Shown one piece after another: positions 2,764-27,393 of a DNA stretch of 53,443 bases (position 1 is the stretch's first letter; each line of letters opens with the position of its first letter). The stretch covers positions 1 to 53,443 of IMG/VR virus record IMGVR_UViG_3300005747_000096; one strand, given 5' to 3'. The DNA is from a virus. Taxonomy: Duplodnaviria; Caudoviricetes. The notes beneath the pieces were generated by a model. It had not been told where the DNA came from and searched no databases. It saw only the letters and a list, made by a program, of their open reading frames with translations. Made by a program: the position numbers and the translations under genes.

Positions 2764-4111
2764 TGCTCATCGCCGTTCCGTCACTGTTAATGCCACCTAA
2801 CAAAAGTGTGTTTTGCAACGTAAGCCCAGCGTGATCTAGCTGGTAATGCCAGCCCGTTGAAGCGCTTGCGTTTCCGCTGGTATAAGTTAGTGCAAAATTT
2901 GTGTATGTTGATTGGCTCACGCTTGAAGCTGAACCAAGATTAACTAAAGTAAGAGTTTCAGTTCCATAACCACTAAAAATAAGAACTCTGTTTCCGTTTT
3001 CATCTATTGTAGAAGCTACGTCAGTTCCTCTGTTAGTAGAGCTGGTGTTATTATGCCCTATTTGTCCACTAGATATTGCTTGACCTGTGGTTAAAACGGG
3101 CATTAAAACTTGCCCTGCCGTGTATGTACTTCCTAAATCGCTTAAATCTAAGAAAGATAGTTGGGTAGTGGCAGCATTTGCAACGCCGTGAACATAATGC
3201 AGAACTTCGTTTGTATCATCGACTGCATAAAAGCTAGTGTAGCGATTACCTGTGTCAGTTGTATTATAATAAGTAAGCCCAACGGCTGAACTACCTTGAT
3301 TTATGTAATCTCCAATGCGGGTGTGATTACTTACATTTGAGTCACTTACATCCCAAACTTCTGGACCCCCAATCAAATCACCAGATCTAAAAACTATTTT
3401 CTTGCGAGGCCAGTAAACAACATCCGCTCTAGTTAATGCAGCGGGTGACAAACTAGCGTTTTGCGCAGTGCCTGCTGTATAACCACTCGCAGATGGTGCA
3501 GCAAAAACTGTTAGGCTACCCGAGGCTCCATTTGCAACAATGTCACTGTAATCAATAGAGGTAAACCTTTCGCTTCCAGCAAATATCATTTGTCGGCTTG
3601 TATCTACCGCCATCTTAGTGAAATGGTTTAAATTAGGTGACTTAGTATAAGTAGCAAGGAGTGTAGGAGATCCACTAAAACTTGTCTTCCAAGAAGAAAC
3701 ATCCCAAAACCCTATCATATCATCTATTTGAGCGACTGTAATTAAAATGTCTGAGCTAGAATCATAGTAACAATTATAGCAACCGTTTAGATCTGACGAC
3801 TGACTAAAAGACCCAAGAATAGACATATTGGTTGGATCAGAAATATCAATAACGGTTATGCTATCGGATAACCTACCGGCTACCCATAAATAATCGTTTA
3901 CAGTATCGACGAAACCACCAATAGCGCCATTTAAAGTTGTCGAGTTTGATACAGAAGAAGCTGGGGTAATGTCGTGCGATTGAAACATTGTGCTGACATC
4001 AATGCTTATGACTGTATCTGTGGCGTAACTAGCTACGAAAATATAAGGAGTAACACTAGCCGCCGCTGCCGCTTTATTTACGCCAATTAATTTTCTCGCT
4101 ATGCTGCTCAC
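2753..4111 (-). CDS. Beta-propeller (LVIVD-like repeat) receptor-binding protein
   Basis: Repeated 'ITVIDISDP', 'FWDVS', 'VWDVSD', 'FLDLSD' blades; lies between a fibre gene and the chaperone. Confidence 0.65.
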
Positions 4112-17910: not shown

Positions 17911-18747
17911 TTAGTAATATCCGCTATGCTTCTGTAAGTACAAGATAGCTTTCTGCATTATGGTAGGATCATCCTTAAAATGCCCTAACCCTGAGTTACA
18001 AGTAGGACATAAATAACTTCTAAACTTGCCAGTAGCATGGCAATGATCCAGATGAAATGTTACCTTTCGGTTATATCGACTCGATAAACCCTCTTCGTCT
18101 ATCCCGCAAATAGTACAACAATGATTTTCAGGTAAAGGATTATCACGCTTTAGCTCGTTAAGTATACCGTCTGATCTTTTACAACAACTCTTGCATCTAG
18201 AACCTCGCTTACCCGTTTTAGAGTTTACGAAATGAAACTGGTTCTTAGGCTTACTCTCTTCACAAAGCACACATCTTTTTAAACCATATTGGTTAACTCT
18301 CCATCTTAAAAACTCACCTAGTGGAACCACCTTTAACCAGTACTTAAATTGGTTAGAAGTAATATCATGTTTGTTCAAAAACCTACTGAGATCGTTCTTC
18401 CTCATAGAAACTACAAGATCAGAGATATGCCCATGTAACTTATCTGTAATAGTATCTAGCCTTCCATAACATTTACTATGGTAAGCATTTCGGTACTTTT
18501 CGTATAAGTTCTTAAATCCTTGGTGAGAGATATAGATGCCGCTTTCACTAGAAACCTTTCTAGCCAAGGAACGGAGCGAACTAAACTGCTTGCTATCATC
18601 CACTTGATCAAAAGCAGCTTCGATAACAGATATGCTGTCATCAATTCTATAATACATATCCAAATTATCCCCCACAGAATAACCCCAGGGAGGCCTTAAA
18701 CCAGGATTAATAACCTGCCTCTTAACAGGCCAACAGTCTAACCCCAT
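17911..18747 (-). CDS. Endonuclease VII-family (HNH-like) nuclease with N-terminal DNA-binding domain
   Basis: 'CTICG..LDHCHATGKFRSYLCPTCNSGLGHFKDD', central CxxC..CxxC; AT-richer than neighbours. Confidence 0.85.
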   Translation of the reverse strand: MGLDCWPVKRQVINPGLRPPWGYSVGDNLDMYYRIDDSISVIEAAFDQVDDSKQFSSLRSLARKVSSESGIYISHQGFKNLYEKYRNAYHSKCYGRLDTITDKLHGHISDLVVSMRKNDLSRFLNKHDITSNQFKYWLKVVPLGEFLRWRVNQYGLKRCVLCEESKPKNQFHFVNSKTGKRGSRCKSCCKRSDGILNELKRDNPLPENHCCTICGIDEEGLSSRYNRKVTFHLDHCHATGKFRSYLCPTCNSGLGHFKDDPTIMQKAILYLQKHSGYY

Positions 18748-21114: not shown

Positions 21115-21341
21115 TATGCTGCAGCCTTTTTGAATTTATAGGCATTGCCTGATGTTTTAAAGCTTACCAAGGCCCCGTTTAATACGTTTTGAAGCGTTCC
21201 ATATGGAATTGAATGTTCGCTTATGGGTTGCCCCTTTTCATTAAGCAAAATTATATATTCCCAACGCTTTAAATGGCATTGTTTGAAGCTTTGATAGAAG
21301 CTTGTTTCTTTGCCGTTAATTTCTAAAATAAAGCCCCGCAT
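21114..21341 (-). CDS. Early hypothetical protein
   Basis: Likely start MRGFILE at 21341 (TGATG coupling to DUF932 gene). Confidence 0.7.
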   Translation of the reverse strand: MRGFILEINGKETSFYQSFKQCHLKRWEYIILLNEKGQPISEHSIPYGTLQNVLNGALVSFKTSGNAYKFKKAAA

Positions 21342-22171
21342 CACGCTGCAGCCTGTTCTGCGATATCCCAAAGGCCTTGGTTCAATCTCACAATTTCTTT
21401 GAGGCCGGTCACCGCTCTTGCGGATCTTGTTTTTATGCCTTTTGCGTTTCGGGATATGATTGGCAGGCCTGCCCCAAGAATACTTTCTTGAAGCCTATTG
21501 TATACTGTCCAAAGATCTTGGCTTGCGTCTTCAATCCGCTTTGGGTGATTGGCGTGTATCATGGTAACGCTATCCCAAAAGGCCCCCGTGTCGGGGCTTC
21601 TGTCTATTTGTTTCCAGCGTAAATCTAAGGCCTGCCTTGCAAGGCTTTGCTGTTGCTTAATATCAAGCTTAACTGCCTGCATTAGCGATGCGGCTTCCAT
21701 AGCCTTTGGCATGTTTTGGGCTTGCTCTTGCACAAGCTTTTCAAAGCCTGCAGTCTGGCCCCCGTCATGCCTTAGCTTTGCCTGCAGGCCTTCGCCCACG
21801 ATGCAACCATTATCACATGCAAACCGATAAATTCCCGACAGCAAACGCAAGCTTTGCGATGCATCGTGCGAATTCCAAAGCAGAATCTCAGGCCTATGCG
21901 GGGCGTCGTTTAGATCTTGTGCAAAGGCTATCAAGTGGCTTGCAAAAGGGATGTTTGCGCTTTTGCGTGATGGTCTTTGCGCTGCATAAACAGGCTTGAA
22001 CCCGTGATCTTGCAAAATTTCCACGGCCTGCATGGTATCAACAAAATCATAATTTTTTGACGTTTTAGGGGCAGGGCTTGGGGTAAATGCTGCAGGGCAT
22101 TTATCTAAAAGATCCGCTTGCGAAAGCATTGTGCGGGGGGTTTTGTCGGTGATCATTAAATCATATGGCAT
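21341..22171 (-). CDS. DUF932 (YubP/TIGR03299-like) protein
   Basis: 'PEILLWNSHDAS..LLSGIYRFACDNG', 'DLWTVYNRLQE', 'RLNQGLW'. Confidence 0.85.
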   Translation of the reverse strand: MPYDLMITDKTPRTMLSQADLLDKCPAAFTPSPAPKTSKNYDFVDTMQAVEILQDHGFKPVYAAQRPSRKSANIPFASHLIAFAQDLNDAPHRPEILLWNSHDASQSLRLLSGIYRFACDNGCIVGEGLQAKLRHDGGQTAGFEKLVQEQAQNMPKAMEAASLMQAVKLDIKQQQSLARQALDLRWKQIDRSPDTGAFWDSVTMIHANHPKRIEDASQDLWTVYNRLQESILGAGLPIISRNAKGIKTRSARAVTGLKEIVRLNQGLWDIAEQAAA

Positions 22172-23378: not shown

Positions 23379-24149
23379 CTATTCTGCAGCCAAGAGAAAG
23401 CCCTTGCCCGCTTGAGCAAGATCTTTAGGAAAACAGGCTTGCGCTTGTGCGGGGCATTGTGTTGTTTGGCTTGGCTCTACTATAAACAAGCTTTTGCTTT
23501 TCTTGGCTTCATTGCCTTTCAGTTTAAGCCCGATAATTTTGCCCCGTTGTTTTTGGTTTTTGATATCGGACAAATCACCGTCAACAATTTCACGGCCTAA
23601 GAAATAAGAACCGACAGGCACAAAGCCCCGAAAGACAACGGCAACAGGCCTGTCGGTTTGAAGCGCTCGCTTCACTTGCTTTTGATATTTTGGCTCTTGG
23701 GAATATGAAAAAATAATATCATAGTTAGGCGGCAAATTGTGCAGCCTTTGGGCGCTTTTGGTATAGTCTAGAAAATAGGCTTGGGGGTATCTTTGGGGGA
23801 TGCCATATCTTTCCCAAGGGATATCGCTTATTGTGTTAAGCCTAATAGCAGGGCTTTTATTTGTGCGGATGCAAAGTGATATAAAGTTTTGTATTTCTTT
23901 ATTCCATTGATCAAGAAAGCCCTGCCTATCTTTCATATAAAAATCAGTTTTGGATTGCCTGCCATTTCTGACATTCGAGAAAGCCCCAAAGCCCGCTTCT
24001 ACTAAGCAAGGCTCTTTGCAACCCGCTAAGATTGCTGCAGGGCAAATTGTATCGTTTGGATAAAGAGAAAGGCTTGCAATCCGCAACCCGCTTTCCTTTT
24101 GGCTCTTTCTAACTTTTGTGTTGCTTGCGCTTGTATCAAGTAATTTCAT
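23379..24149 (-). CDS. Gp88-like family protein
   Basis: 'CP......GCKEPCL', 'IRLNTISDIPWE', 'FLDYTK', 'VAVVFR', 'VDGDLSD', 'IIGLKLKG'. Confidence 0.75.
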   Translation of the reverse strand: MKLLDTSASNTKVRKSQKESGLRIASLSLYPNDTICPAAILAGCKEPCLVEAGFGAFSNVRNGRQSKTDFYMKDRQGFLDQWNKEIQNFISLCIRTNKSPAIRLNTISDIPWERYGIPQRYPQAYFLDYTKSAQRLHNLPPNYDIIFSYSQEPKYQKQVKRALQTDRPVAVVFRGFVPVGSYFLGREIVDGDLSDIKNQKQRGKIIGLKLKGNEAKKSKSLFIVEPSQTTQCPAQAQACFPKDLAQAGKGFLLAAE

Positions 24150-24370: not shown

Positions 24371-24631
24371 GTGCGGGGGCTATATGTGCATATTGACGCC
24401 CAGGTAAAAAAAGAACTAAAAGGGAACATTCAAAACAATAGGGGGATTCGTATGGTGCTAGACCAGGCACAAGCTAAAGAGCTTGGAGAAGCTTTAATTG
24501 ATGCTTCGGATAAAATTGATAGTAATAAAAACACACAAGCAATTGTAGTTATTGGCGATTTAGCGGTAGCAGTTCCTTATCACCCAGACATGCAAGACGA
24601 ATATGAGACAGTTTGTATTATAGGGGTGTAA
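24371..24631 (+). CDS. Hypothetical protein (true start may be ATG at 24452)
   Basis: ORF followed by a terminator; AGGGGGA RBS before 24452. Confidence 0.55.
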   Translation: MRGLYVHIDAQVKKELKGNIQNNRGIRMVLDQAQAKELGEALIDASDKIDSNKNTQAIVVIGDLAVAVPYHPDMQDEYETVCIIGV

Positions 24632-24661
24632 TACGCATTCTCGCCTAAGTAGTTTTAAATT

Positions 24662-24683
24662 AGACCCTTCGGGGTCTTTTTTT
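24662..24683 (+). terminator. Intrinsic terminator
   Basis: AGACCC-TTCG-GGGTCT followed by a T tract. Confidence 0.85.
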
Positions 24684-24685
24684 AT

Positions 24686-24762
24686 AAAAAACCCCCGCCA
24701 AAGAAAGGGAATTGGCGAGGGCTGCTACTAGCAAGGAGACATAGGCTGGGAGGATGCCTACA
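24686..24762 (-). ncRNA. Candidate anti-Shine-Dalgarno (cuckoo/CcsR-like) sRNA
   Basis: TTGCAT..TATATA promoter at 24796-24769; hairpin UAGGC-AUCCUCCCA-GCCUA, single-stranded GUCUCCUU, terminator CCCUCGCCAA-UUCCCUUUCU-UUGGCGGGGG-U6. Confidence 0.55.
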
Positions 24763-24872
24763 AAACCATATATATATAATGCACTATATAATGCAACTAC
24801 TATTTTATTAATTGACTTTATTAATGCCACTCAGTTACATGGTATCAGCCTCATAACCTTTGGGAGACTGAT

Positions 24873-25946
24873 ATGGCGCATATAAAATACCTGAGAAGGA
24901 AAACACTAGAGAGTGGACATAAGATCTGGGTGGTTAATCCACCTAAATACGTCAAAGAAGCTATTGGTGCTTACTATGAGCAGTTTTCTGATCAATCAGA
25001 TGCTACTGCGAGAGCAATCAGTATTGCGGATCAGTACACCGACTACAAAAGAAACATTAAGCGTGAAGTTCATATTAATGAGCGCACGGTTGGTGGCTTA
25101 GTTAATCAGTATAAGCAAACTAACAGTTGGAATAAGCTAACCGACAACTCTAAAAGAACCTACGACCAGTTGTTGCGGGGTACACTTAGATTACGGGTTA
25201 GTGAGTCACCCAAGTTGCTACAGGACATGCTGATAGAGCATATTTCTGTTAAACATGCAGAGTATTTGTACTCACACCTGTGCAAAGATGTAAGTATGCA
25301 CAGAGCAAACCATGTGTGTAAGGTACTCAGACGCATATGGACAGTAGGCCAGCGTCTTGGGTTAACAAAAGTCAATCCATTTAAGAATATGGGTCTAAGG
25401 AAGACGCCATCCCGTACTGTTCTATGGGAACCAGAGCAAGTACATGCATTTGTCGATAAAGCAGATGAAATGGGCACTCCTTCTCTGGGTACGATGGCTT
25501 TGCTTTGCTATGACCTATGCCAGAGGCCAGGAGATATGCGTCAGCTTACTTGGCAGGACTTTCGTGATCAGATCTTTGGGTTTGAGCAGGAAAAGAATAA
25601 GACATGGGTAGATATCCCTGCCTCTCCACGGCTGTTAGAGCGGATGCAATTGGTATCCCCAAGCAACTGGCATGATCAGATTGTGTATTACGAAAAGACA
25701 GGCAAACCATATGACCGCAGGCAGTACAATAAAGTCTTCTGTCGGATCAGAAACGCTGCAGGTCTGCCCTCTGAGTTACAGCTAAGAGATCTTAGACGTA
25801 CAGGTGCAACTGAAATGGCAGAAGCTGGCTGTACTGAGGACGAATTGCGTTCTGTAACGGGCCACCAGAGCCGTGACGTTCTTTCTATCTATGTAAGGCC
25901 TACAAGAAAGCTTGCCGCTGCAGGCATAAACAAGCGGTTTGGATAA
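24873..25946 (+). CDS. int: Tyrosine integrase
   Basis: Catalytic set present: 'CQRPGD', 'QEKNK', 'RDLRRTGAT', 'TGH', 'IYVRP'; GGAG RBS. Confidence 0.92.
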   Translation: MAHIKYLRRKTLESGHKIWVVNPPKYVKEAIGAYYEQFSDQSDATARAISIADQYTDYKRNIKREVHINERTVGGLVNQYKQTNSWNKLTDNSKRTYDQLLRGTLRLRVSESPKLLQDMLIEHISVKHAEYLYSHLCKDVSMHRANHVCKVLRRIWTVGQRLGLTKVNPFKNMGLRKTPSRTVLWEPEQVHAFVDKADEMGTPSLGTMALLCYDLCQRPGDMRQLTWQDFRDQIFGFEQEKNKTWVDIPASPRLLERMQLVSPSNWHDQIVYYEKTGKPYDRRQYNKVFCRIRNAAGLPSELQLRDLRRTGATEMAEAGCTEDELRSVTGHQSRDVLSIYVRPTRKLAAAGINKRFG

Positions 25947-27116: not shown

Positions 27117-27193
27117 TTTCTTGACATACGATTTCGGATACTTTTATGTACTATACTTAACTCTGGGTATTAACCCGTTGTTTTTATTGGACT

Positions 27194-27241
27194 TGGTTGC
27201 GGGAGTAGGATTTGAACCTACGACCTTCAGGTTATGAGCCT
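27194..27241 (-). mobile_element. attP: attP core identical to the 3' half of tRNA-fMet(CAT)
   Basis: Minus strand AGGCTCATAACCTGAAGGTCGTAGGTTCAAATCCTACTCCCGCAACCA = anticodon loop, T-arm and acceptor 3' strand with CCA; no 5' half; flanked by inverted IHF-like boxes at 27171-27189 and 27245-27263. Confidence 0.88.
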
Positions 27242-27393
27242 TTTCAATGAAAACAATGGGTTATAGACGCCAAAGGTTAATAGGCCCATAACTCTGCCAC
27301 ATAATAATGTGCTTGACTTATATCAAAAAGCCTATAGCCTGCGGCTAACCCGCCCAGGGTTAGTAATAGCAACTAGCTAAGAGGCACAAGGCA

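Follow-up and report, generated by a model that had tools for sequence, protein, structure and literature searches.

The window analysed here, that is the whole stretch of 53,443 nt, is a complete virus record, and its gene order is that of an HMO-2011-type roseophage, with the genes for integrase, ThyX, primase and replication on the plus strand and an extended gene block on the minus strand. Its nearest named phage is Roseobacter phage CRP-235. Between the gene for a tyrosine integrase and a conserved gene for a 59-aa protein lies a predicted small RNA (sRNA) gene, which diverges from the integrase gene and converges on the 59-aa gene (Table 1). An acidic ORF of about 60 aa with the motif QARELGEAL converges on the sRNA in 29 of the 39 stretches tried (clades A-G), no such motif was found in L039-L041 and L046-L061, and the 59-aa protein itself has no match in Pfam, PHROG or Atlas. 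At the putative integrase promoter, TTGAC is conserved in related loci; the -10 there is weak, and the promoter scan did not report this site. A non-coding motif, ACT(C/G)GC(A/G)CGTCA (TTGACGYGCSAGT on the other strand), was also observed at about 24640-24655, between the stop codon of the 59-aa gene and its terminator, and is conserved in related loci. It also occurs near the integrase promoter in the clade whose integrases are about 45% identical, and in some clades the putative integrase promoter has a similar copy overlapping its -35. This motif may be an operator or protein-binding site.

Table 1. Features of the sRNA locus and its surroundings, with positions in the window.
Feature	Position	Strand	Basis or remark
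Endonuclease VII, DUF932 and GP88-family proteins	17911-18657, 21341-22171, 23379-24149	minus	start of the minus-strand block beside the locus
Conserved 59-aa gene, counterpart of gp01 of CRP-235 and CRP-3	24452-24631	plus	ORF with motif QARELGEAL
Terminator of the 59-aa gene, AGACCCTTCGGGGTCT then T run	24662-24685	plus	terminator scan
sRNA module (promoter to terminator)	24796-24686	minus	sequence reading
sRNA promoter, -35 TTGCAT	24791-24796	minus	sequence reading; position kept in related loci
sRNA promoter, -10, A/T-rich (TATATA/ATATAT), about 17 nt past the -35	~24768-24774	minus	sequence reading and related loci
Predicted sRNA, about 75-78 nt	24686-24763	minus	fold; covariance model R1
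Hairpin 1, 6-bp stem GUAGGC/GCCUAU, loop AUCCUCCCA	24741-24761	minus	fold and alignment A4
CCUCCC within the loop of hairpin 1	24748-24753	minus	sequence reading
Linker GUCUCCUU, single-stranded, CU-rich	24733-24740	minus	sequence reading and fold
Small hairpin GCUAGUAGC, inside the second conserved segment UUGCUAGU	24724-24732	minus	fold
Intrinsic terminator of the sRNA, 11-bp stem, loop UUCCCUUUCU, U6	24686-24722 (hairpin 24722-24691)	minus	fold and terminator scan
Putative integrase/early promoter, TTGACT, 17 nt, TTACAT	24812-24840	plus	inferred from sequence reading
Tyrosine integrase	24873-25946	plus	Pfam PF00589, E 5e-16
tRNA-Met 3' fragment, anticodon loop CUCAUAA to CCA (context 27190-27250)	27194-27231	minus	38-mer identical to CRP-3 attP region

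The minus-strand elements that the initial annotation had described, from the promoter-like hexamers to the terminator, were all found in place when the sequence was read, and the predicted fold agrees with them. A simple promoter consensus scan picked other nearby hexamers and not TTGCAT; at the same place in related loci, TTGCAT, TTGACN or TTGCTT is found 17 nt from a -10 of the type TAnnnT, and the promoter is putatively sigma-70-like. The spacing from this promoter alone would put the 5' end of the RNA at about 24763-24760. For a 91-nt stretch, the minimum free energy structure consists of the hairpins listed in Table 1 and has -31.2 kcal/mol, compared to -21.2 +/- 3.1 kcal/mol for 200 shuffled sequences (z -3.28), none of which folded as well. 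The sequence CCTCCCNG occurs twice in the window, where 4.1 occurrences are expected; as the motif in one genome is not beyond chance, the significance of the sRNA rests on its conservation in relatives.

Relatives of the integrase were found at 70 viral loci, with identities ranging from 99% down to 43%. The start of the integrase gene is included in 59 of these loci, and the 11 that are cut inside the gene were left unassessed; three loci were too short, and the assessable set comprised 57 stretches, namely the window and 56 loci, each with 270 nt or more of upstream sequence. A promoter, a C-rich element and a terminator on the strand opposite to the integrase were present in 52 of the 57 stretches, which represent 40 distinct sequences, so that the conservation in related phages, named by the initial annotation as a check on its reading, was confirmed. 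The module is absent in the remaining five (L042-L045 and L068). In L042-L044, with integrases about 54% identical, an A/T-rich region with repeated AACGGTTA/TAACCGT motifs takes the place of the sRNA; it may be another type of regulatory or attachment region. The module is present, though unannotated, in the cultured roseophages CRP-235, CRP-3 and CRP-212. It is absent from the integrase regions of CRP-738 and HMO-2011, which encode integrases of no more than 34% identity.

The first 45 nt of the RNA do not differ between near-identical relatives, in contrast to the promoter spacer and the flanks. The covariance model R1, built from an alignment of 18 sequences (A4), matches the window with 69.1 bits (E 1e-15) as its sole match there, recovers 32 of 74 sources at E<=6e-5, among them CRP-235 and five sequences that had been excluded from the seed (E 4e-6 to 6e-5), and matches CRP-3 at E 1e-4. 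The linker stays CU-rich in other clades (UCUUCCUU, CCUUCCUC, GCCUCAUCC, UCUUUCUCCCUAC, GCUCCUCCUCCCAAC). The second conserved segment UUGCUAGU is common to three clades, and TTGCTAGT, which sits in a hairpin loop in distant clades, is found in 13 of the 40 distinct sequences. The loop of the terminator is not conserved, being pyrimidine-rich only in the closest relatives of the window and reading AUUCG, AUUAACG or UUCG elsewhere. Of the three single-stranded segments that had been proposed as pyrimidine-rich, anti-Shine-Dalgarno-like sequences, the loop of hairpin 1 and the linker are thus conserved, whereas the terminator loop varies among clades. The window fits a general model with a promoter, CCUCCC in a 5' hairpin or single strand, a CU-rich linker and a terminator, divergent from one integrase clade. 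When a looser hairpin pattern was run over viral contigs, at least 80 stretches were obtained, nearly all by chance; filtering of these with R1 kept four known contigs, and two weak extra matches lay in coding-looking sequence.

In the 18 sequences of alignment A4, the 6 pairs of hairpin 1 are paired in 100% of the cells, although both sides have changed at 3 of the 6 pairs and five pair types occur at one of them. Over the whole structure, 97.9% of the cells are paired, compared to 91.6% in shuffled alignments (none of 500 reached the observed value) and 42-65% when the 3' partners were slid. Compensatory changes preserve the stem of the terminator as well, as in L002, where GCC/GGC has become GUC/GAC. 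In a distant clade with about 45% integrase identity (alignment A6, 9 sequences), compensatory changes were detected at 8 of 32 pairs; the RNA of this clade is longer, its loops CUCCUCCC and UUCCCCCUU being closed by stems of 12 bp and 7 bp, respectively, and it ends in a terminator. Averaged over the 40 distinct sequences, the probability of being unpaired is 0.98 for the C-rich motif and 0.44 for the whole RNA, in a count in which the motif pattern missed L036 and L038, whose loops are CCCCUCU and UUCCCC. The fold is more stable on the sRNA strand than on its complement in 36 of these 40 sequences, on average by 6.15 kcal/mol. In CRP-3, the motif is single-stranded between hairpins. Conserved stems with loops that are not conserved would have indicated a mere cluster of terminators; as the motif of hairpin 1 stays unpaired and conserved and the stems vary, the opposite pattern was found, except that the loop of the terminator is not conserved. 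These results support a phage-borne small RNA gene with a predicted promoter and terminator of its own, a C-rich, anti-Shine-Dalgarno-like loop and a CU-rich single strand, and we consider it very probable that the sRNA is a real RNA gene.

No Rfam family matched in the window at gathering thresholds, and a search of the locus at E<=10 gave only weak, terminator-driven likenesses, the best being rli38 with 22.9 bits against a cut-off of 49. Neither the c4 RNA of P1/P7 nor any other phage RNA family of Rfam was among the matches to the window at gathering threshold or to the locus at E<=10. A copy of a host gene was rejected as well: in 156 Rhodobacteraceae genomes (5 and 151), R1 gave only weak, chance-level matches, which on inspection were terminators or coding DNA, the exact 20-mer of hairpin 1 occurred in none of the genome contigs, and R1 had no match at 100 tRNA-Met loci (of at least 120 stretches). 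Genome contigs contained no relative when searched with the integrase sequence; with the integrase alignment, two relatives with 45% and 27% identity were obtained (L074, a Legionellales MAG, and L075). No sRNA lies upstream of the integrase in L074, and R1 matches neither of the two.

The phage attachment site was located through CRP-3, which integrates into tRNA-Met and for which the junction primers attL-R and attR-F have been published (PMC6918029). The phage-side primers map to positions 2829-2849 and 3642-3662 of CRP-3 and bracket a 3' fragment of tRNA-Met. The identical 38-mer at 27194-27231 of the window is, by this sequence identity, the probable attP core of the phage; ARAGORN calls no tRNA there because the 5' half is missing. 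The 38-mer is common in Alphaproteobacteria, above all in Rhodobacteraceae (at least 120 stretches). As this fragment is 2.4 kb away from 24686-24796, an attP at the sRNA locus was rejected.

Public sequencing runs gave 7 weak matches, and contigs from four of them were short, most of them covering the 5' region of the integrase gene. One contig from an RNA library (metatranscriptome) spans 24743-25081 and continues into a variant of the sRNA. Since one of its ends lies within the integrase gene and the other halfway through the sRNA, no separate RNA can be demonstrated with it, and it may derive from DNA.

With regard to its working, a sigma-70-type promoter would start the RNA within a few bases of the short 5' hairpin, whose loop would present CCUCCC, followed by the CU-rich single strand and by the terminator with its U tail. 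Such a build would be that of an Hfq-type base-pairing sRNA, with a presumed dependence on Hfq. CCUCCC would pair with G-rich Shine-Dalgarno regions (GGGAGG-like) and would block the initiation of translation, probably on host messages. Because the exposed C-rich seed is that of the loops of host CcsR/cuckoo RNAs, pairing with G-rich Shine-Dalgarno regions is the most likely action, and by this analogy the odds are somewhat better than even that the sRNA acts in trans, carries the host CcsR seed and occludes G-rich Shine-Dalgarno sites. Host targets are probable because the phage's own messages are without a full seed match, GGGAGG being absent from the sense strand of phage mRNAs in the window. 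In the window as a whole, there are 2 GGGAGG sites where 16.9 are expected, and the Shine-Dalgarno-like hexamers AAGGAG, AGGAGG and GGAGGG are strongly depleted as well. The depletion of GGGAGG is part of this general trend and therefore not specific to the seed; it is compatible with host targets and does not count as support for them. On the transcribed strands of the window, several palindromes are also rare, with CTTAAG, GCATGC, TGGCCA and TCATGA at 0 and GCTAGC and CAGCTG at 1, where 14-19 of each are expected; together, the depletion of palindromes and of Shine-Dalgarno-like hexamers looks like avoidance of restriction sites and of internal Shine-Dalgarno sequences.

Within the phage, pairing was found only at the level of chance or of generic complementarity. 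The start region of the integrase gene shows 5-7 nt of generic Shine-Dalgarno/anti-Shine-Dalgarno pairing in all 40 loci with no co-variation, and at the start region of the neighbouring 59-aa gene the Shine-Dalgarno sequence varies while the sRNA loop is constant, again with no co-variation. Complements of 10-mers of the sRNA occur 5 times in the window, compared to about 3.8 expected. RNAduplex without accessibility gave meaningless long duplexes and was not used. A 6-nt seed has little specificity. The initial annotation had further proposed that early genes lack GGAG and would be immune to the sRNA. A hand count on our own gene calls, in which the plus strand holds the integrase and replication genes, contradicts this: GGAG is found no more than 20 nt before the start of 7 of 23 genes on the plus strand, the integrase gene among them (UGGGAGA), compared to 6 of 53 on the minus strand.

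The locus could also hold an element acting at the level of DNA or transcription, such as an attP that includes arm sites for the integrase, a set of operator repeats, or clustered terminators separating convergent from divergent genes. It adjoins the integrase gene, it contains two terminators, and ACT(C/G)GC(A/G)CGTCA lies on both sides of the sRNA in several clades. However, the CRP-3 primers and the 38-mer 2.4 kb away place attP elsewhere, pairing in the stems is maintained, for one strand only, by G-U pairs and compensatory changes, a conserved loop with varying stems is the opposite of a mere terminator, and a conserved promoter precedes the RNA. These findings largely refute a DNA-level reading, to which we now give very little chance. 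The chance is almost negligible for a short coding gene or a type I toxin-antitoxin system, in which the minus-strand ORF at 24660-24830 would be translated or the 59-aa gene would encode a toxin with the RNA as its antitoxin. A 56-aa ORF with a GTG start does overlap the region, and cmscan gave below-threshold likenesses to rdlD and to a 'toxic sRNA' family. But this ORF would span both the promoter and the terminator of the sRNA, relatives differ within it by indels of 1, 2 and 7 nt, which are not multiples of three and led to the rejection of a coding function, the Rfam likenesses reach 13-15 bits where the cut-off is 50, and the 59-aa protein, acidic and hydrophilic, is encoded by a gene that lies outside the RNA.

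Granted an RNA gene, its product might be directed at the phage itself, as an immunity or lysogeny switch in which the sRNA made by the prophage silences the phage's own early messages (integrase, helicase, MazG-like, RNR; with GGGAG-type Shine-Dalgarno sequences) and so keeps the early/replication operon off without a recognisable repressor. RNA-based immunity or lysogeny control has precedents in P1 c4 and in the CI RNA of P4. The sRNA promoter and the putative early/integrase promoter point away from each other, their -35 elements being 15 bp apart; the module occurs strictly together with one integrase clade; and GGGAG lies upstream of 4 of 23 genes on the plus strand, compared to 1 of 53 on the minus strand. 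Among 30 ORFs tested, none had a CI/Cro-type or other repressor domain above the Pfam cut-offs, and integrase-bearing HMO-2011-type phages are described as having no recognisable repressor or other lysogeny gene, the integrase being the only identifiable one (PMC9038755). On the other hand, the GGGAG of the integrase gene is not kept in CRP-3 and other clades, extended complementarity to phage messages was not found in the window, and Rfam gave no match to C4 or another phage RNA; on balance, we hold such a switch to be improbable. A decoy or sponge, whose C-rich loops would titrate a host factor (a G-rich sRNA, an RNA-binding protein such as Hfq or one with DUF1127, or else a nuclease or a defence protein recognising the anti-Shine-Dalgarno end of 16S rRNA), appears similarly doubtful. 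The motif does resemble the anti-Shine-Dalgarno of 16S rRNA and reads CACCUCCC in some clades, the DUF1127 protein CcaF1 handles host CcsR RNAs (PMC8034643), and a specific mRNA target was found neither at the integrase start, nor in the window, nor at the start of the small gene. Yet an exposed seed and a U-tailed terminator are the build of ordinary base-pairing sRNAs, and a sponge would be a matter of pure inference.

Phages of the HMO-2011 type are a dominant, widely distributed marine viral group (PMC9038755), for whose integrase-bearing members the structured, integrase-tied sRNA is a first candidate regulator. In our literature search, no paper was found that treats HMO-2011 together with an sRNA, a search for phage-encoded sRNAs and anti-Shine-Dalgarno yielded none on marine phages as judged by titles and the beginnings of abstracts, and Roseobacter is unmentioned in the available part of the text of a 2025 review of phage sRNAs (PMC12197685). 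In Rhodobacter sphaeroides, CcsR1-4 act on flhR mRNA, modulate C1 metabolism and pyruvate dehydrogenase, raise glutathione and are partly Hfq-dependent (PMC8034643). Cuckoo/CcsR RNAs are characterised by association with Hfq, induction under stress and repression of targets such as flhR. A seed equal to that of host CcsR leads to the testable idea that an abundant marine phage could reprogram stress response and carbon metabolism of its host by RNA. It is conceivable, if rather unlikely, that temperate HMO-2011-type roseophages practise seed mimicry, carrying a stripped-down CcsR seed under a constitutive promoter of their own and switching the CcsR stress regulon of the host independently of RpoH, and that the same RNA may be the sole immunity factor of these repressor-less phages. 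The regulon reached would then comprise C1 and pyruvate metabolism, the glutathione pool and resistance to oxidative stress. Since CRP-3, CRP-235 and CRP-212 (strain FZCC0040) carry the sRNA, a direct test is feasible in three cultured phage-host pairs, and the sRNA family would be an addition to Rfam, from which it is absent.

Small RNAs that occlude Shine-Dalgarno sites by means of C-rich seeds include RsaE/RoxS of the Firmicutes and SprD/SprX of staphylococcal mobile elements. Like them, the phage RNA has C-rich motifs left unpaired in both a loop and a linker, with a terminator behind them, and it is presumed to pair with G-rich ribosome-binding sites. It differs from them in that sequence and host are unrelated, Rfam gives no match and its action is a proposed one. 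Among phage regulatory RNAs, P1/P7 c4, P22 sar, OOP of lambda and VpdS of VP882 have been reviewed (PMC12197685). Like the RNA described here, c4 is a small phage-encoded RNA, and it shows complementary sequences in loops and blocks a ribosome-binding site; in contrast, c4, sar and OOP are antisense to defined phage messages (PMC12197685), whereas no phage target is evident here.

The closest comparison is with the cuckoo/CcsR RNAs of Alphaproteobacteria, to which the initial annotation had likened the locus. The cuckoo family is defined by 2-4 adjacent hairpins with CCUCCUCCC in each loop, many of its members adjoin a gene for a DUF1127 protein, a trait of the CIN1 subgroup, and the Rfam model RF02344 (ar14) represents the form with three hairpins (PMC4615179). 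In the window, the RNA consists of one motif hairpin, a linker and a terminator, and in the distant clade there are two C-rich loops. The loop of the window, AUCCUCCCA, has the conserved core CCUCCC/CUCCC, and the full 9-mer CCUCCUCCC was seen solely in the linker of L034. The neighbours of the sRNA are the integrase gene and the 59-aa ORF, which has no Pfam match, and there is no DUF1127 gene. Comparison with the cuckoo model by Infernal, which had been suggested as a check, was negative, as RF02344 gave no match on the locus (24500-24950) even at E<=10, none in the window at gathering threshold, and none in nine related loci at E<=1. Membership in the cuckoo/CcsR family, as defined, is therefore not upheld.

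With RF02344, matches were obtained in 5 of 5 Rhodobacteraceae genomes, all below threshold, with E values from 1e-8 to 4e-4, the best having 53.5 bits against a cut-off of 58.8, and matches were often in tandem. CcsR-type RNAs of Rhodobacteraceae fold as units of two hairpins, with loops such as AUCCUCCCU and CCUCCUCCCUG. The unit of Nereida ignava (G001), which lies downstream of a DUF1127 gene, has the loops UUUCCUCCUCCCG and CAUCCUCCCUG, and loops in other Rhodobacteraceae genomes read ACCUCCUCCCUG, CCUCCUCCCUGA and similarly. Tandem arrays of such two-hairpin units were observed at L285 (G004:C8:173326-173677), with six motif loops, and at L286 (G005:C1:2901518-2901708), with four. All of these arrays are below the gathering cut-off of RF02344, which matches the prediction made for two-hairpin forms (PMC4615179). 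In the phages, the corresponding loops are CAUCCUCCCAG (window), UUCCUCCCUGU (CRP-235), AUCCUCCCUGU (CRP-3) and ACCCUCCCUGU (CRP-212). At the level of the seed, the proposed likeness to cuckoo/CcsR thus stands, since the loops of the DUF1127-linked RNAs of hosts match.

Taken together, the phage RNA differs from CcsR/cuckoo in that it usually has one motif hairpin of 5-12 bp instead of 2-4 adjacent modules, that its motif is the 6-nt CCUCCC and not CCUCCUCCC, that it has its own promoter and a separate terminator whereas the others are UTR-derived tandem arrays beside a DUF1127 gene, and that it is carried by phages beside an integrase gene; RF02344 misses the phage RNA, and R1 misses the host RNAs. 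By analogy, it would nevertheless be CcsR-like in its working, yet it departs from the family in hairpin number, loop motif, neighbouring gene and match to RF02344. In common are a C-rich, anti-Shine-Dalgarno-like motif in hairpin loops, stems that vary by compensatory changes, the same core seed, and the occurrence in the family of the hosts, Rhodobacteraceae. From the comparison of phage and host loops, the host seed is presented by the phage RNA on a scaffold that is smaller and differently built; it represents a new and well-conserved family of phage sRNAs that belongs to a known kind and has a host-like seed.
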